This document shows, piece after piece, positions 11,171 to 45,716 of a DNA stretch of 64,000 nt. The stretch is from the NCBI GenBank assembly GCA_017615615.1, contig JAFZZW010000088.1, positions 395-64,394 of the forward strand. The letters run 5' to 3'. Position 1 is the stretch's first letter. Every line of letters begins with the position of its first letter. The notes beneath the pieces are model-generated. The model worked only from the letters and a program-made list of their open reading frames with translations. It ran no database searches and was not told the DNA's origin. This DNA is from Bacteroidales bacterium (lineage in GTDB: Bacteria; Bacteroidota; Bacteroidia; Bacteroidales; UBA932). A program made the translations under genes and the position numbers.

Positions 11171-11200
11171 TGTTACACTATAGTCCAGCCACGTCTCTCC

Positions 11201-11522
11201 CGAAGACAACGTGGCGCCCTCCACATCGTCCTCGCGTACGGAATTCCTTCTTAAGTTCGGCAAAACAAGCAGCGAAGACAACGTGGTGCCTCCCACATCG
11301 TCCTCGCGTACGGAATTCCTTCTCATGTTCGGCAAAACAAGCAGCGAAGACAACGTGGCGCCTTCCACATCGTCCTCGCGTACGGAATTCCTTCTCATGT
11401 TCGGCAAAACATACAGCGAAGACAACGTGGCGCCCTCCACATCGTCCTCGCGTACGGAATTCCTTCTTAAGTTCGGCAAAACAAGTAACGAAGACGATGT
11501 AGAGTGCTCTACATCGTCTTCG
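11201..11522. repeat. Array A: five 34-bp hairpin repeats, 72-bp period
   Basis: CGAAGACAACGT-N10-ACATCGTCYTCG at 11201, 11273, 11345, 11417 and 11489 (the last is a perfect-palindrome variant); 38-bp near-identical linkers. Confidence 0.95.
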
Positions 11523-11562
11523 CGCAAACGGTGGCTGCGCCGGGCTACTTCTCCCTGCCTTA

Positions 11563-11736
11563 TTATTTGCTGGCCCCGGCTTTGCGTCCGGCGCGGCGGA
11601 GGGCGTCGTTGATTATCCACTGGAGCTGACCGTTGATGCTGCGGAACTCGTCCGCAGCCCAACGTTCCAGAGCGTCCATCGTTTCCGGATCGACCCGGAG
11701 GACGAAGCTCTTGACAGCTTCTTTTTCCTTGGACAT
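11563..11736 (-). CDS. Arc/ribbon-helix-helix small DNA-binding protein (57 aa, not in ORF track)
   Basis: MSKEKEAVKSFVLRVDPETMDALERWAADEFRSINGQLQWIINDALRRAGRKAGASK, directly downstream of the SPFH gene. Confidence 0.85.
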   Translation of the reverse strand: MSKEKEAVKSFVLRVDPETMDALERWAADEFRSINGQLQWIINDALRRAGRKAGASK

Positions 11737-11737
11737 A

Positions 11738-12676
11738 TTAGTAGAGCGATCCTGAATTGACCACAGGCTGCGCAGGTTCGTCTCCGCAGAGGACTACCAG
11801 CAGGTTGCTGACCATAGCTGCTTTTCTCTCTTCGTCAAGATCGACCACGCCTTCGGATTTGAGTTTGTCGAGCGCCATCTTGACCATGCTCACGGCACCG
11901 TCGACAATCTTTTCGCGGGCGGCGATGATGGCGTCGGCCTGCTGGCGGCGGAGCATGACCGCTGCAATTTCGGGAGCGTATGCCAGATAGTTGATACGGG
12001 CCTCGATTACGTGGATGCCGGCCATGGAGAGGCGCTCGTTGAGAGTGGTTACCAACTGCTCGTTAATCACTTCTGCATTGCTGCGAAGAGTGAGTTCGTC
12101 GGCGGAATCGGCATTGTCGTAGGCGTAGCAGCCCGCAACCTGGCGAAGGGCGGCGTCGCTCTGGACGCGCACGAAGTTCTCGAATGCCTGCGACAGCATG
12201 CGGGCGGAACTGCGGCCGGTGGCATTGGACACGGGGGCGGCCAGCGACTGGCTGTCAATTTCGAACAGGGCCTTGTATGTGTCGGCCAGCTTCCAGACCA
12301 GCACCATGCCGATCATTACCGGATTGCCTGCCTTGTCATTGACCTTGATGGGCTCCGGGTTGAGGTTGCGTGCGCGGAGGCTGACGCCTTTCTTATTCAG
12401 AAGCGGATTGACCCAGTAGAAGCCCGTGCGGGTGAAGGTTCCGCTGTATTTGCCGAAGAATACCAGCACTCTGGCCTCGTTGGGCTCGAGCTTGATGAAG
12501 CCGTTCATGCAAAGGGCGAAAAGCAGCATCCCGATGCCGCCGAACACGGCGAAGACGCTGTTGGTGTCGGCCATTATAAAGAGGTAGATGATAGCTGCAA
12601 ACAGTACGATAACCAACAGCAAAGCCAGAAAACCATTCAGGCAAATGCCTTTGTAAGAGAATTCGTTCGTTTTCAT
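11738..12676 (-). CDS. SPFH/band 7 domain membrane protein
   Basis: Two TM helices, KVND..GNP, LAYAPEIAAVMLRRQQA, DEERKAAMVSNLLVVLC; promoter element on minus strand at 12698-12705. Confidence 0.92.
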   Translation of the reverse strand: MKTNEFSYKGICLNGFLALLLVIVLFAAIIYLFIMADTNSVFAVFGGIGMLLFALCMNGFIKLEPNEARVLVFFGKYSGTFTRTGFYWVNPLLNKKGVSLRARNLNPEPIKVNDKAGNPVMIGMVLVWKLADTYKALFEIDSQSLAAPVSNATGRSSARMLSQAFENFVRVQSDAALRQVAGCYAYDNADSADELTLRSNAEVINEQLVTTLNERLSMAGIHVIEARINYLAYAPEIAAVMLRRQQADAIIAAREKIVDGAVSMVKMALDKLKSEGVVDLDEERKAAMVSNLLVVLCGDEPAQPVVNSGSLY

Positions 12677-12787
12677 AATAGTATCATTTTGATATCGCAA
12701 AGATACTGCTATTTTTGGTAATTCCAATAGGTGGCAGCAATATATTAAAGAAAAAAGAGTATATTGCAGGACAAAAGAGCCAAAACG

Positions 12788-14224: not shown

Positions 14225-14469
14225 CGGTTTCCTTCACTCTGAACTGCCGAGAAATACTCGGTAGTTGCCTCTTTTGAAAGCTCAGCTGATTCGTATATAT
14301 TCTTAAGGTGCAGACTAATACTGTCTGGAGAGCAACCAAACAGAGCCGCCATAGCTTTCTGCGTGGCCCAAATACTTTCGTCCTTTAATACTACATCCAC
14401 CTTTACATCCTCTGTGGTCGCATTGGGTGGCGGGGCTTCCCCTTCGGGGGCAGTATACAGGAGGTTCAA
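14225..14469 (-). pseudogene. N-terminal fragment of a RhuM-like protein
   Basis: LLYTAPEG...DVKVDVVLKDESIWATQKAMAALFG....ISLHLKNIYESAEL..EATTEYF..VQSEGNR, after which the resemblance ends. Confidence 0.65.
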
Positions 14470-14979
14470 GTCCTACCCATGCCAGAAATAGGATAGTGTT
14501 ACGCTTCGGGCGGCTCGGACCACTCCTCACCCTTGCTTCGGCGAGGGTGTTGGATAATCTCATTTTGGTGCGGTGACGTGACTCGGGGAGGTTCTAGAAT
14601 AACGTCATCGGCAGTTTTAGGCTATTTCTTCCGAAAAACCGCCAGTGACGTGACCAAATGGGGTGCGGGAATCACTTCACTACTCGAATAGTTGTGCCGC
14701 TGCATAGATTTCTGCTTCTGGGACGAGTGGAGCCTCTGATACTGCGCTACCATATCATCCCAGGACCAAGGCGCTTCGGACCAGGAGAGGACCTCCCGAC
14801 TCAAGTCCTCGCTGAAACGACGGATAAGGTCGAAGTTTATTTAATGCAGTTCAGGCATCTTGTATCACGATGATTGTCTTTTCTGCCTGCAGTTATACAA
14901 CAATCCTATGAATTAAGCAAAATTGCGAAGCCTGTGCAGAATTGCAAGAGCCCCGCGAGCAGAGTGCGGGGCGTGTTGT

Positions 14980-17904: not shown

Positions 17905-17993
17905 TGCTTTCAGGGGTGCCTGTCTTGGTACCCCTGACGACGAATCAAGGCGTTTTTGCTTTCAGGGGTGCATGGCTTGGTACCCCTGACGAC
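17905..17993. repeat. Palindrome doublet TCAGGGGTGC-N7-GTACCCCTGA
   Basis: Two 37-bp direct copies (17905-17941, 17957-17993) between convergent genes. Confidence 0.85.
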
Positions 17994-17998
17994 AGTAT

Positions 17999-18721
17999 CT
18001 ATTTAATAACCGGGCGGATGGGGAGGCCGATGTTGCGCGAGAGGTTGCCGTAGCTTGAATTATCAGGGGTGATATCCCAGCAGTCGGCGAAATAGTTCTG
18101 GCCTTCCAGGAGATTGGAAGTCCAGTACTTGCCGTAGTCGGTATAATCCGGATTCCTGCCGTCGTAGATCTGGGTGCTGAAGCGGTGGCCTACTGCGGGG
18201 AGGAAGATGCTTTTCCCGGTGATCTTGTTTGCCACGAGGTAACCGGTCGAGCCTCCCTGGCTGGTCCATGTCCAGGAGCAGTTGTCGCGGAGCTCCTGCC
18301 ATTCCTTGACGGTCGGCATGCGCCATTTGCCGCCCCAGTTGGCGTGGGCGGCGTCGTCGGCGGGTTCGAGGACGGACTTGTTGTCCACAGTTCCGTACTT
18401 GCCGTCGGTGACGTACTTATGGAAAACGTTCCCCTTGTTGTCGCTCCAGCGGTAGGATTCCCAGTTGTAGCCGGCACCTTTTCCGGCTTTCCATATGGCA
18501 TCCTCGACCAGGGCATACCCGTCCTTGTAGTAGGTCTCCGCCTCGCCCCAGGCGAAGTAGTCGCCTGCCTCTTCCGGCTTTGCGGCCCCCACGTTGCAGG
18601 TGGCCCATTTAACACTGAGGCCAAGGTCTACATATTCATGTCCCTGATGCTCGGGATTGGTCTTGTTGCAGGCAATTGCCAGCAGGGCGGTGAGGCCTAA
18701 AAGGATGAATCGTGGTTTCAT
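17999..18721 (-). CDS. Lipoprotein with 'HEYVDLGLSVKWATCNVGA' domain (Fib_succ_major/Lcl-like)
   Basis: LAIAC lipobox; GDYFAWGE, DDAAHANWGGKWRMPT..EW.EL, SIFLPA.G, YWTS, IRPV. Confidence 0.82.
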   Translation of the reverse strand: MKPRFILLGLTALLAIACNKTNPEHQGHEYVDLGLSVKWATCNVGAAKPEEAGDYFAWGEAETYYKDGYALVEDAIWKAGKGAGYNWESYRWSDNKGNVFHKYVTDGKYGTVDNKSVLEPADDAAHANWGGKWRMPTVKEWQELRDNCSWTWTSQGGSTGYLVANKITGKSIFLPAVGHRFSTQIYDGRNPDYTDYGKYWTSNLLEGQNYFADCWDITPDNSSYGNLSRNIGLPIRPVIK

Positions 18722-21126: not shown

Positions 21127-21214
21127 CCCGGTGTGCAAAAAGGGCCTGATTTGCACACGGGAGGGTGGAAAACAATGATGCCGTGTGCAAATCCTGGGCG
21201 TTTTGCACACGGCA
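21127..21214. repeat. Inverted palindrome doublet GTGTGCAAA-N-TTTGCACAC (REPIN-like)
   Basis: Copies at about 21127-21161 and 21179-21214 in opposite orientation. Confidence 0.8.
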
Positions 21215-21343
21215 TTGGAGTACAGGCTGATACCCGAGCGCTGGCCGGAGGTGCGCAGAAAAGACTGGCTGCTGCCGTGGGATGGGAACGACACCCACAG
21301 CCGGAAGTACACCGACCAGTTTGACAAGATACTCAAGTAGTCC

Positions 21344-34522: not shown

Positions 34523-34648
34523 TTCAGTTTTCAGGATACTGTTTCCGGAAACCCTACGCTTCGCTCCGCCCCTCCCACTTCGTGGGCCCCTCCCGTTCAT
34601 GGCCACGGGCGGCCAAAGGTTTCCGGAAACAGTATCCTGAAAATTGAA
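34523..34648 (+). repeat. Long-arm inverted-repeat element, copy 1
   Basis: 31-bp arms (34523-34553 / 34618-34648, one mismatch) around core CCCTCCCGTTCATGGCCACGGGCGGCC. Confidence 0.85.
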
Positions 34649-36076: not shown

Positions 36077-36997
36077 ATGAAAAGAATAATAACCATTGCA
36101 GCATTGTTGCTAAGCACTATCGCTATGAGCGCACAGACCAAGTACACCGTTCAGACGGCCTGCCATCCCGAGGACGTCAAGCATTACGACACAGAAACCA
36201 TCCGTGCCCGTTTCATGATGCCTGAGGTAATGGTGGCCGACCAGATCACCCTTACCTATTCACTTTACGACCGTTTCATCTTCGGAGGCGCAGTGCCTGC
36301 ATCCAAGCCCCTCAAGCTGGAGACCATCGATCCACTTAAGGCTTCATACTTCCTTGAGCGCCGCGAACTCGGCGTCATCAACGTAGGCGGCGAGGGCATA
36401 GTCAAAGTCGGATGCAAGGATTATGTCCTCAAATTCAAGGATGCGTTGTACGTCGGCCGCGGCAACGAAGACGTCGTCTTCATCAGCAAGGACCCGGCAA
36501 ATCCGGCCAAATTTTACATCAACTCCGCAACGGCCCACAAAGCATACAAGACACAGCTCGTCACCATCGATGGACGCAAGGGCTCGATCAAGGCAAATTC
36601 CTTTGCAGCAGGCAAAATGGAAGATTCCAACGACCGCGTCATCAACCAGCTCATAGTCAATAACGTGCTGGAAGAGGGCCCCTGCCAGCTGCAGATGGGC
36701 CTTACCGAGCTCAAGCCCGGCAGCGTCTGGAACACCATGCCTGCGCATACTCATGCCCGCCGTATCGAGGCTTATTTCTATTTCAACGTCACTCCCGGCA
36801 ACATGATCTGCCATTTCATGGGTGAGCCCCGGCAGGAAAGGATTGTATGGCTCGCCAACGAGCAGGCCATAATGAGCCCCGAGTGGAGCATCCACGCCGC
36901 CGCCGGCACCTCCAACTACATGTTCATCTGGGGCATGGCAGGGGAGAACCTCGACTACGGCGACATGGACAAGATAGCATACACCGAGATGCGATGA
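36077..36997 (+). CDS. kduI: 5-dehydro-4-deoxy-D-glucuronate isomerase with N-terminal signal peptide
   Basis: [52 protein letters not shown]; starts [20 protein letters not shown]. Confidence 0.95.
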
Positions 36998-38358
36998 AAC
37001 TGCGGCTGACGGTATTCGCCGCCGCTTTGCTTGCCGCCGGTGCGGTTTCCGCCCAGCCGTACGATACGTACCGCGAGATCTATTCCCGGTCGGAACTTGC
37101 AAGCGGAGTGCATACGATGTATCCCACGGACCAGCCGGCCCCCAGGTCGGCTCCCGCGGGGTACAAGCCGTTTTATATCAGCCATATCGGAAGGCACGGC
37201 GCCAGATATCCCCTTGGCGAGACGGTTTATGAAGATATCCTCGAGGTATTTACCGATGCCGCTGCCCGGGGCCTCCTTACAGCTAAAGGAGAGGAGTTCC
37301 TCAAGGTTTATTCTGAGTTTTATCCTCTCGTGGCGCACCGGGAGGGAGAATTGACTTTCAAGGGGCAGGAGCAGCACCGGTATATTGTCCGCCGGATGTA
37401 TCGGGATTATCCCGGGGTGTTCGAGGGGCCCACTCGTGCCTGTGCAGTGGCTACTCATATCCACCGGGTCATTGCCAGCATGTACAGTTTTCTGGGCGAG
37501 GCCCGCGAATTGGATCCGGATTTCACATATACTGCAGATTACGGCATCTCATATCTGCCTGTATTGCTGCCCTCCGCCTCCGAATGCCCCGGCTTCGAGC
37601 CCCTTGGACCGTTCCCTGAGGATGTCCTGAAGATGTACGGAGAGTACTGCGGGAAGCTTGTGGACGTGCCGGGCATTCTTGGCCTCTGGTTCAAGGAAAC
37701 GGAGTCATTGGGCGTTGAACCGTATGACCTCCTTGCGGATCTGAATACCGTTTATTCTACATTCACCAACCTTGATGCAGAGGTCCCCGGGGCGCTGTGG
37801 GCGATGTTCTCTTTCGACGACCGCTACAGGCTCTGGGAATACGACAACTGCCGCTGGTATCTCATGTTCGGCCGTGCGCCCGGGGTGAAGAATTACACTT
37901 CGTACATGGGGAGCGTTGTGGGCGATGTCATCGGCAAGGCCTCTTCCGACTGGCAGGAGGGCATCGCATTGCGCCTGCGCTTTACTCACGACAGCACCAT
38001 AGCCTCGCTTCTCACGTATCTTGACGTGGATGGCATGGGAGCCGAGGTCTCCGATCCCGGACAAGTCAGGGATTACTGGCGCAATTTCGAAATCCCCATG
38101 GCCGCCAACCTCCAGTTCGTGTTCTTCCGGAGAGGCGACGGTCCGGCGGGTGACGGTATGGCGGTCGACGGTTCTGTGAACGGCAGTCTGGCGGGCGACG
38201 GTATGGCGGTCGACGGTTCTGCGAACGGCAGTCTGGCGGGCGACGCCGACGTTCTGCTCCAGGTCCTTCACAACGGCTTCGAGGCCACCCTCCCCCTGCC
38301 CGAAGCCAGTTCCGGCTTCTACCGCTGGAGCGACTTCGTCGACCGATATTCCCGGTAG
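36994..38358 (+). CDS. Histidine acid phosphatase family protein, exported
   Basis: [11 protein letters not shown] and FTHDS motifs; signal peptide ending AVSA-Q. Confidence 0.88.
38145..38245 (+). repeat. In-frame 45-bp tandem duplication in the phosphatase
   Basis: [10 protein letters not shown](V/A)NGSL x2 plus a partial third copy. Confidence 0.9.
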
Positions 38359-38414
38359 GAGCTTCGCTGCTGCCGTACTTCAACCTTTCTTCTTTGTTTT
38401 CTTCTTTCCAACCG

Positions 38415-38808
38415 CGAAGACAACGTGAGACCTTCCACATCGTCTTCGCGAACGGTTTTGCCGCCGTTCCGCTCCTTTTCCGCATGCGAAGACAACGTGA
38501 GACCTTCCACATCGTCTTCGCGAACGGTTTTGCCGCCGTTCCGCTCCTTTTCCGCATGCGAAGACAACGTGGCGCTCCCCACATCGTCCTCGCGAAGGGT
38601 TTTGCTGCCGTTCCGCTCCTTTTCTGCGCACGAAGACAACGTGAGACTCGCCACATCGTCCTCGCGAGCAGTTTTGCCACCGTTCCGCTCCTTTTCTGCG
38701 TGCGAAGACAACGTGAGACCTTCCACATCGTCCTCGCGAAGGGTTTTGCCGCCGTTCCGCTCCTTTTCTGCGCACGAAGACAACGTGGGCCCCTCCACAT
38801 CGTCCTCG
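38415..38808. repeat. Array B: six 34-bp hairpin repeats, 72-bp period
   Basis: Repeats at 38415, 38487, 38559, 38631, 38703, 38775; 38-bp linkers unrelated to those of array A. Confidence 0.95.
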
Positions 38809-39002: not shown

Positions 39003-39392
39003 ATGGCCTACAACCGTACAACCTGTTTTCTTCCGATGGAAGAATACAACCGTATCAAAAGCCAGTACTCAAAGTTCAACGAACCCTGGCAATCTTCCGA
39101 AGTTGATGAACTGAAAACAATGGCTGCCGACAATGTCCCGGTAGGGGACATCGCAATGCAGCTTCAACGCACTCCCAACTCCGTTAAAATGAAACTGAAA
39201 TCTCTTGGGCTGTACACCGCCAAGCCGGCGTCAAAGCCCTGGAGCAATGACGACGAAGCTAAGCTTGTCCAACTGTACAACAACGACGTCCCGTTTGAGG
39301 ATATGGCGCAGGAGTTCGGCCGGAGCGTTGGCGCAATCATCTCCCGCCTTGTTCAACTCAGAGTCAAACTATTCAATCAGCAGCAACAATGA
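39003..39392 (+). CDS. Small protein with two Myb/HTH-like repeats
   Basis: PWQSSEVDELK...IAMQLQRTPNSVKMKL and PWSNDDEAKL...MAQEFGRSVGAIISRL. Confidence 0.8.
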   Translation: MAYNRTTCFLPMEEYNRIKSQYSKFNEPWQSSEVDELKTMAADNVPVGDIAMQLQRTPNSVKMKLKSLGLYTAKPASKPWSNDDEAKLVQLYNNDVPFEDMAQEFGRSVGAIISRLVQLRVKLFNQQQQ

Positions 39393-39518: not shown

Positions 39519-40748
39519 CTATTTGCCGTTGTATCGGCCGGCGAACAGGATTGCGCCAGAGCTGTTTTCCGTGATAAAATAAAGGAACGGATGGTCTGCG
39601 TGGAAGATCACGGTGCCCTCGGGATCGAAGCCGACAGATGTATTTTTGATGACGCCAATCGATACGGCAGCAGCCTCGGAACCTTCTTCATCGACCTTGA
39701 TGATGGCTTTCTGCTTAATCATATCGATGCAGACGAATTCCTTCGTCATAGCGGAGAAGTCAGCTATCGGTCCGAAGGCGGTCGGCATTCCGAGTTTGGA
39801 GAGCATTTCGGTCAGATCGGCCTCGAACTTGCTTTCGAACTTTGGAAGCCACAGCTGGACCTGACGGCTCGACATGGAACCGGCCAGACTCTTCCACCCG
39901 GTTTTGTTGAGCGAAGCAATAACGTCGGAGACGGTGTTTCCTTCTTGAGGAAGGGCGACGATCATGGAGAATGAACCGTTACCGTATGGCAGACGGACTG
40001 CACGGAATACGTTATTCGAAGCGTAGGCGAACTGTTCTTCCTTCTTCATCATCTTCTGCTTGATCTTTTCTCCTGGTTTGCTGATGAACGGTTCCTCGGC
40101 TGTGGCTGCCTTGTCGAAAGTCTTTACCCATTTGCTCTTGAAATACAAGGCGTTCATCAGGACCGCATAGGTCTGGGGGGAAAGGTCGTCGAGTATTTTG
40201 GGGATGAGTCCGTTGGTGTTCCTGTTGCACCAGCCGTTGATTTTGCTGAGAGCAAGAGAGGTGTTGGAGAAATCAACGCTCTCCACATATGCTTCATAAT
40301 AGTTGGCGACGGTATTCTTGTAGCTGGCAAGTAAGTCTCCTCTTTTGGCGACCATGATTGCGTTGGCAATCTTAAGCGTGGTCTTGTCGTCCAGTTTGGG
40401 GAGCTGGGTAAGCATGGATTTGCAGTACTCGTTGACGGAACCGGTCTCGCCGGCACCGTAACCGAGGACCTCGCAGATTTCGTCCGCCGTCTGGCCTTTT
40501 GCGCCGTTGAGAATCATCCCGAGAAGATACTGAAGGCTTAGAGGGGAAATGACGTAGCTGCCTTCTTCCGCCTCGTTTATCTTCTCCATGAAACTAAGGG
40601 AGAAGTCGTTTCCCTTTTGGATGTATTCTGCAGCTTTCGTGCTGAGTCTCAATTCTTTGAAGTTGTCGTCACCGCCGTCTATCACAGCCGGATTACAACC
40701 GGCGACAATCATCGCCGCGGCAGCAAAAAGAAGGATGTATCTACGCAT
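39519..40748 (-). CDS. Serpin (serine protease inhibitor), lipoprotein
   Basis: VAGC lipobox; ISPLSL, INGWC.RNT.G.I, NALYFK..W, LPKF, EEGSEAAAV hinge, FHADHPFLY.I. Confidence 0.95.
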   Translation of the reverse strand: MRRYILLFAAAAMIVAGCNPAVIDGGDDNFKELRLSTKAAEYIQKGNDFSLSFMEKINEAEEGSYVISPLSLQYLLGMILNGAKGQTADEICEVLGYGAGETGSVNEYCKSMLTQLPKLDDKTTLKIANAIMVAKRGDLLASYKNTVANYYEAYVESVDFSNTSLALSKINGWCNRNTNGLIPKILDDLSPQTYAVLMNALYFKSKWVKTFDKAATAEEPFISKPGEKIKQKMMKKEEQFAYASNNVFRAVRLPYGNGSFSMIVALPQEGNTVSDVIASLNKTGWKSLAGSMSSRQVQLWLPKFESKFEADLTEMLSKLGMPTAFGPIADFSAMTKEFVCIDMIKQKAIIKVDEEGSEAAAVSIGVIKNTSVGFDPEGTVIFHADHPFLYFITENSSGAILFAGRYNGK

Positions 40749-40815
40749 TTTTTTATTTGTTAAAGACAGTTGGAGGTCCAATCTTGCATATACAAGTTGT
40801 AAATATAGAAATAAA

Positions 40816-41793
40816 ATGAGACAAACTAATCATCTGTGCCTCTCGTCGCATGACGAAGTCATGTACCGGAATGAAGAGGACCTGATAATGGGTTTCAACA
40901 GCCTTGCTCTTGCTGTTATTGAAACCGAGTCCCGATTGTTGGCTGAGGCATTCATGCCTACTCATAACCACAAGGTCATTCAGTCAGATTGTCCGGAGGA
41001 TCTATTCAGGAAAGAGCGGTATACTTATACAAGGTACTTCAATGCCAAATACCATCGACGGGGCAGATTAGGCGAAAGGCATTGCTTTCAGTTGACCGTA
41101 GAGGGAGTTCATCATACTCAAACCTTGCTGAATTATGTCATCCGGCAAGGCATTCATCACGGTCTGGTATCCACTCCGTTTGAATACAAGCATTGTTCCG
41201 CCAATTGCTTCTTCAAAAAAGAGCTTGGGAGACTGGCCGATTCAGCCCTGATCAAGGAGGAGTTGGAGTATAAATATCTCCCGGAGCACAAGAAAATCCC
41301 CCTCGGATATCATATGGGCGCTGATGGATTATTATTACGGGACGATGTGGTGGATTCGAAATATGTTCAGGAAATATATATCACAGCGAGGAACTTTCTG
41401 TTTCAGATGAACAAATTGACAGACGAAAAAGCAGTGCAGATTCAGCAGGAAGAGAATGAGAGTCCGCCAGTAACGCTGGATATGTTGGAACGCGGAGTGC
41501 AAGAATACGATTATCAAAAGGCCCTGGTTAACGAGCAAGGGCGCGTCAACAACAACATCCTGACAGATCTTGAGATGTGTCATGTCATTGATGAAAAAAT
41601 ACTGCCGAGGTATTTCAAGGATAATGAAGAGCGTTCAATATACAGTCTTCCTGAGTCGAAAAGGGCCGAAATTGGGAATGCCCTGTGGCTGGAATCACGA
41701 GATTCGTTTGGACGGCACGGAAAGAACATTCTCTGCAACAAGAAAACCAGCCCTGCCCAAATTCGGAGATGCCTAGCTCTCAACAATCGATAG
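40816..41793 (+). CDS. RAYT/TnpA(REP)-like Y1 HUH nuclease with long C-terminal extension
   Basis: FMPTHNH (HUH), YTRYFNAKYHRRGRLG, NYVIRQGIHHGLVSTPFEYKHCS (variant of YI..NP...GL...P.DY.WSS). Confidence 0.82.
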   Translation: MRQTNHLCLSSHDEVMYRNEEDLIMGFNSLALAVIETESRLLAEAFMPTHNHKVIQSDCPEDLFRKERYTYTRYFNAKYHRRGRLGERHCFQLTVEGVHHTQTLLNYVIRQGIHHGLVSTPFEYKHCSANCFFKKELGRLADSALIKEELEYKYLPEHKKIPLGYHMGADGLLLRDDVVDSKYVQEIYITARNFLFQMNKLTDEKAVQIQQEENESPPVTLDMLERGVQEYDYQKALVNEQGRVNNNILTDLEMCHVIDEKILPRYFKDNEERSIYSLPESKRAEIGNALWLESRDSFGRHGKNILCNKKTSPAQIRRCLALNNR

Positions 41794-41803
41794 GACTGAT
41801 TCG

Positions 41804-42213
41804 CGAGGACGATGTGGAAGGTCTCACGTTGTCTTCGCACGCAGAAAAGGAGCGGAACGGTGGCAAAACTGCTCGCGAAGACGATGTGGAAGGGCCCACG
41901 TTGTCTTCGTGCGCAAGGAGCGGGAGCAGGGAGATGTTCGCCAAAACTGTGGCCGCCCATGGCCGCATGAATGGGAGGGATGGAGCGAAGCGGAAGTTTT
42001 GCGAACATCTTCCTGCGGCAGCGACAGAACAATCGCGAGGACGATGTGGAAGGTCTCACGTTGTCTTCGCATGCGGAAAAGGAGCGGAACGGCGGCAAAA
42101 CTGCTCGCGAGGACGATGTGGCGAGTCTCACGTTGTCTTCGTGCGCAGAAAAGGAGCGGAATGGCGGCAAAACCGTTCCCGAAGACGATGTGGGGAGCGC
42201 CACGTTGTCTTCG
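41804..42213. repeat. Array C: five hairpin repeats, inverted relative to B, with one linker replaced by an insertion
   Basis: CGARGACGATGT-N10-ACGTTGTCTTCG at 41804, 41876, 42036, 42108, 42180. Confidence 0.95.
41926..42016 (-). repeat. Long-arm inverted-repeat element, copy 2 (nested in array C)
   Basis: Arms 41926-41948 / 41995-42016; its reverse complement shares CCCTCCCATTCATGCGGCCATGGGCGGCCACAGTTTT with copy 3. Confidence 0.85.
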
Positions 42214-42270
42214 CGCAAAGGTGGAAGGAGTTTGGCGGGGAAAAGAATCTCGGAGGAACGAGGAAGAACC

Positions 42271-45594: not shown

Positions 45595-45716
45595 GCAGAA
45601 GCGGAGTGCCCTGAAAAACCTTCGGACTCTGCGAGTCCTCGTCCCTCCCGCAAGCGGGCCCCTCCCATTCATGCGGCCATGGGCGGCCACAGTTTTTCAG
45701 GACACTCCGCTTCTGC
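45595..45716 (+). repeat. Long-arm inverted-repeat element, copy 3
   Basis: 25-bp arms (45595-45619 / 45692-45716, one mismatch) around the same core. Confidence 0.85.

Follow-up and report, generated by a model that had tools for sequence, protein, structure and literature searches.

The three tandem arrays A, B and C, found in a 64,000-nt stretch of Bacteroidales DNA (the window), belong to one family of repetitive extragenic palindromes, F1, that is likely to work like REP/BIME clusters, the 34-nt hairpin probably being the recognition element of a RAYT-like Y1 transposase encoded at a REPtron-like locus between arrays B and C. The source genome (G000) comprises 1.93 Mb in 92 contigs and is 72% complete, and the contigs related to the window come from rumen Bacteroidales MAGs.

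Tandem Repeats Finder returned a period of 72 at 11201-11524, with 4.5 copies, 90% matches and 0 indels (array A), and also picked up array B at 38414-38808 and array C, in inverted orientation, at 42033-42214. The array unit consists of a 34-nt hairpin followed by a 38-nt linker. Array A (11201-11522, + strand) contains five F1 hairpins (11201-11234, 11273-11306, 11345-11378, 11417-11450 and 11489-11522) with an exact 72-bp period; the four linkers between them, 38 nt each, are reversed in polarity, and the fifth hairpin forms a perfect 16-bp palindrome with a left arm of the C type. Array B (38415-38808, + strand) carries six F1 hairpins and five standard 38-nt linkers and begins 56 bp past the stop of a histidine-phosphatase gene. 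Array C lies on the - strand and is interrupted by a small inverted-repeat element of 126 nt (41910-42035), which takes the place of one linker. Beyond this insert are two extra units (41804-41909), the first of which begins 10 bp past the stop codon of the Y1 gene and whose G.T-wobble strand is the coding strand of that gene, while the three further units (42036-42213) begin 57 bp past the stop codon of a pectinesterase gene, itself on the - strand. Copies of the small element at 41910-42035, 34523-34648 and 45595-45716 have a common core (...CCCTCCCATTCATGCGGCCATGGGCGGCC...) and long inverted arms that differ from copy to copy.

Some features were recorded beside the arrays. The histidine-phosphatase ORF (36847-38358) bears 15- and 45-bp tandem repeats in its 3' part (38134-38245), and its TAG stop shares its reading frame with one of the open frames of array B, an agreement expected by chance in one case out of three. 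Beside array A, a 57-aa ORF (11563-11736, - strand) with weak ribbon-helix-helix/Arc matches is located directly upstream of a Band-7/SPFH gene (11738-12727). The tail CGCAAACGGTGG (11523-11534, + strand) follows directly 3' of array A. The earlier note on this DNA had reported that all three arrays end on the + strand with a similar GCAAA(C)GGTGG motif even though C is inverted, and this was confirmed: three of the seven exact genomic occurrences stand directly behind A, B and C on the + strand, and a genome scan found the tail absent from the other 15 arrays. The common tail GCAAAGGTGG may be a decayed piece of linker.

In the F1 hairpin a 13-bp stem encloses an 8-nt loop (columns 14-21). 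This loop is the most variable part of the hairpin, as previously stated, the 10 nt then assigned to it having included the closing G-C pair. Loops are mostly uniform inside an array and different from array to array, which is the pattern expected from local tandem duplication, and nothing points to the guides or barcodes that had been proposed for them. Three stem positions are not Watson-Crick pairs: they are A.C on the strand reading CGAAGAC and, therefore, G.T on the opposite strand. A single hairpin of the G.T strand folded as ssDNA with -7.7 kcal/mol (z -3.0) versus -3.4 kcal/mol (z -0.5) for the A.C strand, and array B folded as RNA gave -217.7 versus -144.8 kcal/mol, so that the strand-specific folding attributed to these wobbles holds for both nucleic acids. 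A covariation analysis of the stem, which had been suggested as a check, was run and provided the observed pair types; these do not by themselves prove selection on the G.T strand, since any single transition from an A.C ancestor yields a Watson-Crick pair. A small hairpin within the standard linker (GAACGG/CCGTTC) was also considered and rejected, as it lacked covariation and its paired fraction was 0.564 observed versus 0.565 shuffled. The sequences flanking the foot of the F1 hairpin are ...G and CGAACGG on one strand and CCGTTCG on the opposite one; a GTAG/GTGG tag is absent, and CGTC falls within the stem.

A loose scan of the source genome returned 69 hairpin matches, about 68 of which are true F1 copies, distributed over about 18 intergenic arrays of 1-6 units each, many located at contig ends. 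The hairpins of any one array all share the same polarity, and the scan showed no inverted REP pairs. At least nine arrays begin within 75 bp of a stop codon, with mixed orientation relative to the neighbouring genes. This position, together with the strongly strand-specific RNA fold produced by the wobble pattern and the reported role of E. coli REPs as mRNA stabilisers (PMC3333891, PMC3733652), would fit an RNA-level function selected first, in which 3' UTR arrays serve as mRNA stabilisers, terminators or sources of processed small RNAs and 72 nt is an RNA unit. We regard this reading as unlikely, because the mRNA sense is the poorly folding A.C strand in at least six arrays and the G.T strand in others, no U-tract stands directly behind the hairpin on either strand, no Rfam family matches the arrays (the Rfam scan of the window returned tRNA-Gln only) and ssDNA hairpins tolerate G.T pairs as well. 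An RNA-level side effect on neighbouring mRNAs, as for classical REPs, could coexist with a REP-like role of F1.

The linkers were compared across the family. One diverged linker family is common to all arrays but A, and the same is true of a related genome (G020, RUG12551), of RGIG7893 and of a few contigs from rumen metagenomes. In 73 units pooled from several genomes the hairpin measures 34 nt without exception and the linker 38 nt in 71 units, the remaining two having 37 and 39 nt; in another species linkers of 38 and 39 nt are both present. The period is 72 throughout the source genome except for three intervals of 71, 73 and 160, the last spanning an insertion. The minimum spanning tree of the 64 distinct 38-nt linkers requires at least 367 substitutions, and indels occur in a handful of linkers only. 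In unconstrained bacterial DNA about one indel is expected per ten to twenty substitutions, so the linker length looks constrained. The genome-wide tally of linker lengths, which had been indicated as a check on the earlier note, thus agreed with its expectation that the length does not vary freely. A metagenome scan with a gapped two-arm pattern, most of whose hits were chance matches from GC-rich soil contigs, yielded seven real F1 loci, all carrying standard 38-nt linkers and none an A-type linker.

The same comparison bears on the CRISPR-sized architecture that had been suggested, in which loops or linkers hold target information and an acquisition machine measures spacer length. The 72-nt period (34 + 38) does resemble a CRISPR repeat plus interval of about 36 + 36 nt, the repeat is partly palindromic in both cases and the F1 loops differ between arrays. 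In CRISPR arrays, however, the interval is not one repeated sequence family, whereas the F1 linkers are repeated within arrays, between arrays and between species, and the variable part of F1 is the hairpin loop, mostly identical inside an array. Moreover, a search for Cas1 (PF01867) gave 0 matches in the 72%-complete genome, cas genes were not found, and the neighbours are ordinary housekeeping genes plus the Y1 transposase. We therefore hold a guide array to be highly improbable.

A period of 72 also equals 24 codons, and 24-residue protein repeats would account for the absence of indels. Five of the six frames are open and every third position is somewhat more variable (mean entropy by phase 0.88, 0.71 and 0.56). 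Nevertheless, the codon-usage score is at most 0.10 in all frames versus 0.19 for long ORFs, and no ORF overlapping any F1 array has a coding score above 0.12. The arrays sit behind stop codons in both orientations, some linkers inside arrays measure 37 or 39 nt, conservation is highest in the columns of the two complementary arms, whatever the codon position, and the A linker is reversed. A coding origin of the period is thus scarcely credible.

Array A required a separate analysis. The earlier note had described its hairpin and 72-bp period as shared with B and C and its linker as different but equal in length, which is correct, as the A and B/C linkers are identical at 14/38 positions in direct register. 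Against the F1 linkers in forward register the best score was 15/38 and the mean 11.9, not significant with respect to shuffles. The reverse complement of the A linker instead aligns ungapped and in register, with 20/38 identities to the consensus and 23/38 to one natural linker; its mean identity of 17.1 was reached by 0/5000 shuffles, and a PWM test gave p of about 0.0014. Judged by this alignment, the A and standard linkers are homologous, A having the reverse-complement polarity, and the description of the two as unrelated has to be abandoned. On the + strand, the linkers of array A run as in the inverted array C, whose tail it also has, and its hairpins run as in array B; array A is a polarity variant of the ordinary F1 unit.

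The simplest account of array A is an inversion by recombination or template switching. The hairpin would have been inverted relative to the linker, either through an inversion between the inverted arms or through a template switch in the quasi-palindrome, with the length kept at exactly 38 nt, and the new unit would then have been tandemly amplified. The fifth hairpin, a palindrome with a C-type left arm, looks like an intermediate. The linker of a sister hairpin family, F2, is quasi-palindromic, and its forward strand agrees with the A linker at 20/38 positions. This match opens an alternative to inversion, namely that an ancestral palindromic linker left one of its halves in A and the other in the standard form. 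In either case the common length of 38 nt is inherited, the A linker being homologous in register, and array A on its own shows length inheritance, not measurement.

Returning to the locus between arrays B and C, the gene at 40817-41793 (+ strand) encodes a 325-aa protein with an HUH motif (THNH) and a Tyr motif (YVIRQGIHH), whose residues H50, H52 and Y107 are invariant across 11 homologues. Its AlphaFold model (pLDDT 71.7) gave the RAYT-REP complex 4er8 of E. coli as best structural match (Z 11.9, rmsd 2.9, 144 residues aligned), followed by IS608 TnpA (Z 9.2). The comparison with 4er8 was run independently of Foldseek, where the top 30 matches were all IS200/IS608/ISDra2 TnpA or RAYT. Pfam returned no match for the protein at E up to 1, while 2/11 homologues matched at 5e-4 and homologues at 37-43% identity pass the Y1_Tnp (PF01797) cut-off in genome scans. 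Since the protein itself falls under every Pfam threshold, it is assigned through its fold, its motifs and transitive homology, and by its predicted structure the product is a RAYT-like Y1 HUH transposase. A PDB sequence-profile search with the family gave nothing significant, the relation being visible by structure comparison only.

With E values up to 1e-5, the family counts at least 825 members. Of the 120 members listed, the few with names are annotated as hypothetical and none shows a Pfam domain. The family profile found strong matches (E up to 1e-30) in two of 301 genomes of the order, both from the same genus, and this order-wide search added no loci from other genera to the survey of hairpin spacing described below. 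The interval between arrays B and C also contains a small ORF with weak helix-turn-helix matches (39003-39392, + strand) and a serpin gene (39519-40781, - strand; PF00079, E 3.5e-99).

The distribution of hairpin and enzyme was then compared. Among 77 genomes of the genus, F1 hairpins are present in number only in G000 and G020, and Y1 orthologues with at least 75% identity were found in the same two genomes, the next best reaching 51-53%. The G020 locus is syntenic and presents, in order, a hairpin, the HTH gene, the serpin gene, the Y1 gene and an inverted array 25 bp past its stop. In GCA_016285995, a 74% orthologue is surrounded by different neighbouring genes and is associated with F1 hairpins 11 bp past its stop and three more upstream. 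Orthologues with at least 74% identity and the F1 hairpin thus occur together in three genomes, one of them non-syntenic. This count is small and the genomes are related, not independent, which weighs against the REP/RAYT reading, as does the presence of two unrelated genes between array B and the Y1 gene.

The source genome contains four Y1 paralogues, each flanked by its own dispersed hairpin family. The paralogue on contig C41 (53% identity) is flanked by F2, the one on C29 (23%) by F5 and the one on C62 by F8; the hairpins beside the C62 and C29 genes were missed by the strict scan and found once wobble pairs were tolerated. F5 (CAGGGGTGCC...GGCACCCCTG) is represented in the window at 17911-17999 by pairs 52 bp apart and occurs on both sides of the C29 gene (C29:32391-33451). 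F8 (GACCTCTGGGA...TCCCAGAGGTC, 50396 region of the window) has 19 genomic copies, all single, and stands on both sides of the C62 gene. A further hairpin family (CGTGTGCAAAA...TTTTGCACACG, window 21128-21215), with about 39 genomic copies, forms pairs exactly 52 bp apart, and its copies adjoin F1 arrays on contigs C5 and C26. According to the literature, RAYTs typically occur as one gene per REP type flanked by its own REPs, TnpA-REP requires the non-complementary bases of the REP stem and cleaves within linkers, and strains differ in their number of tandem BIMEs (PMC3333891, PMC6006769). The enzyme-hairpin pattern in G000 and its relatives matches the one published for RAYTs and REPs.

The spacing of the hairpins was examined across families. 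About 13 unrelated hairpin families located beside Y1 homologues show distances of 71-73 nt from centre to centre, with one of 83: the value is 72 nt for F1, F2, L164, L153, L193 and L159, 73 nt for L174 and L188 (two pairs each, on both sides), L191 and L192, 71 nt for L178 and 83 nt for L166/L167. The hairpins at these loci are unrelated in sequence and 28 to 46 nt long. The F2 bipartite element of the window (14574-14679, + strand) consists of a pair of 34-nt hairpins (core GACGTGAYTC) at a distance of exactly 72 nt, joined by a linker of 38 nt, and the architecture 34 + 38 + 34 nt is found in 7/7 copies, with linkers that are unlike at roughly half of the positions. F2 is also present on contigs C21, C41, C48 and C62; the loop of its second hairpin (AAAAYGGGGTGC) and its left flank (ATCCCATTTTT) are conserved. 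Just upstream of the F2 element, at about 14440-14483, a tRNA-like 3' end (GGTTCAAGTCC...CCA) was noticed, which is uncalled by ARAGORN and Rfam.

Fixed periods of a different size, 51-52, are seen in families that belong to distant paralogues or lack a known enzyme. As hairpin length varies while spacing stays, and other families keep 51-52, the conserved quantity is the centre-to-centre distance and not the linker. The recurrence of 71-73 nt across unrelated hairpin families indicates that a real length constraint exists, while the single period of 83 and the 39-nt linkers of one species show that the spacing is not absolute. The constraint is probably set by the Y1 enzyme. The enzyme-imposed ruler formulated in the earlier note thus stands in part: the length is constrained, both in the linkers and in the spacing beside Y1 homologues, whereas array A, on which the proposal was based, shows inheritance. 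An enzyme-linked ruler is plausible, with the 325-aa Y1 protein as the candidate.

A variant of array A offers a view of how the arrays change. The sequencing runs listed as containing the region are three DNA runs, all from one study, with no RNA run among them, and a contig from an independent sample (run X3) joins position 11200 to 11417, thus lacking exactly three units (216 bp) of array A. Arrays therefore change size by whole units. Recombination suffices for such whole-unit differences between samples and for the near-identical units within an array, and direct tandem order is typical of minisatellites. In a plain minisatellite, replication slippage and unequal recombination would be the sole means of spreading and of changing size, with the Y1 gene incidental and the period independent of any enzyme. 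Slippage leaves unexplained, however, the dispersal to about 18 unlinked sites, the joint occurrence of the hairpin family and one Y1 orthologue in three genomes, including a non-syntenic one, the flanking of 4/4 Y1 paralogues by their own hairpin family, and the return of the 71-73 spacing in unrelated hairpin families. On these grounds a plain minisatellite appears quite unlikely.

In the REP/RAYT reading that we prefer, the enzyme would bind the single-stranded F1 hairpin on the strand where the mismatches are G.T wobbles and would cut in the linker flanking it. Arrays would grow and shrink by whole 72-nt units, through enzyme-mediated strand transfer or ordinary unequal recombination. The spacing of 72-73 nt between centres would be a general substrate trait of the enzyme family, most likely reflecting the engagement of two neighbouring hairpins and their cleavage sites. 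In IS608 the cleavage sites lie at set distances from each hairpin; we infer that such distances, put in tandem, would fix the hairpin interval. More tentatively, and with less than even confidence, we suggest that this Bacteroidales Y1 family might act as a true molecular ruler on a two-hairpin substrate, demanding about 72-73 nt between the centres of adjacent hairpins of any sequence or stem length, that arrays might grow by enzyme-added unit-length ssDNA and that the C-terminal extension of about 200 aa could be the measuring part.

Most work on REP elements and their domesticated transposases concerns Proteobacteria, in which they are well studied; their mode of multiplication is still unsettled, and to our knowledge they are little described for Bacteroidota. 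F1 shares several traits with REP/BIME elements and their RAYTs (the REPtron and E. coli BIME-2; PMC3333891, PMC3479197, PMC6006769): an imperfect palindrome of 20-40 nt whose stem has conserved non-complementary positions, numerous intergenic copies (about 68 in 1.93 Mb), most of them behind genes, tandem clusters with copies alike per locus and numbers differing between strains, a Y1 HUH gene present in one copy with its own repeats on its flanks, a separate repeat family for each paralogue and an enzyme whose best structural match is a RAYT-REP complex. Unlike REPs, the F1 foot has no GTAG, GTGG or CGTC tag and the hairpins stand in direct tandem instead of inverted REP/iREP pairs, and the fixed spacing differs from BIME-2, whose linkers are reported as variable in length and sequence. 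The enzyme also departs from classical RAYTs, as it is twice as long, with its C-terminal extension, has an HUH motif of the THxH type and a Tyr motif Y...Q/N..HH instead of Y...NP, is not recognised by Pfam and is annotated as hypothetical only.

Comparison was extended to IS200/IS605 elements and their miniature derivatives (IS608, ISDra2 and palindrome-associated elements), which have the same Y1 HUH fold and, like the F2 bipartite element, a pair of subterminal hairpins arranged in direct order on one strand. In contrast to these whole-element copies, each type of Y1 gene in G000 is single-copy, the paralogues are 23-53% identical with no near-identical copies (the Y1 genes stand at 100, 53 and 23% and have different flanking hairpins), tnpB is missing and the multiplied part is the hairpin unit and not the gene. 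Within the same phylum, the survey of Quentin et al. (2018) defined a Y1 subclass 1.2 with the Tyr signature Y---Q--HH, a specific C-terminal domain and low copy number (PMC6006769), and the motif YVIRQGIHH fits this signature. Compared by description, the Bacteroidetes proteins of subclasses 1.2 and 2.6 differ from the F1 enzyme in their average length (148 and 179 aa) and their motifs (DH[IV]H or NH[LIV]H); according to the survey, members of subclass 1.2 generally lack IS200-type terminal structures, and fixed-period hairpin arrays do not appear in the descriptions of the two subclasses (PMC6006769). With respect to the classical REP/BIME-RAYT system, the novelty lies in the direct tandem hairpins, the lack of a GTAG tag, the 72-73-nt spacing and the divergent, longer and unannotated Y1 enzyme.

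These results have consequences for the study of such elements. F1 arrays break metagenome assemblies, as seen from the many located at contig ends, and can pass for CRISPR arrays. A large protein family can be read as RAYT-like, each enzyme having its own hairpin family. Finally, the 72-73-nt spacing outlasts the complete turnover of hairpin sequence and provides a testable handle on how Y1 enzymes engage two hairpins and on how clusters are amplified; if the ruler proved true, REPs would have a way of propagating that has not been described for classical RAYTs.
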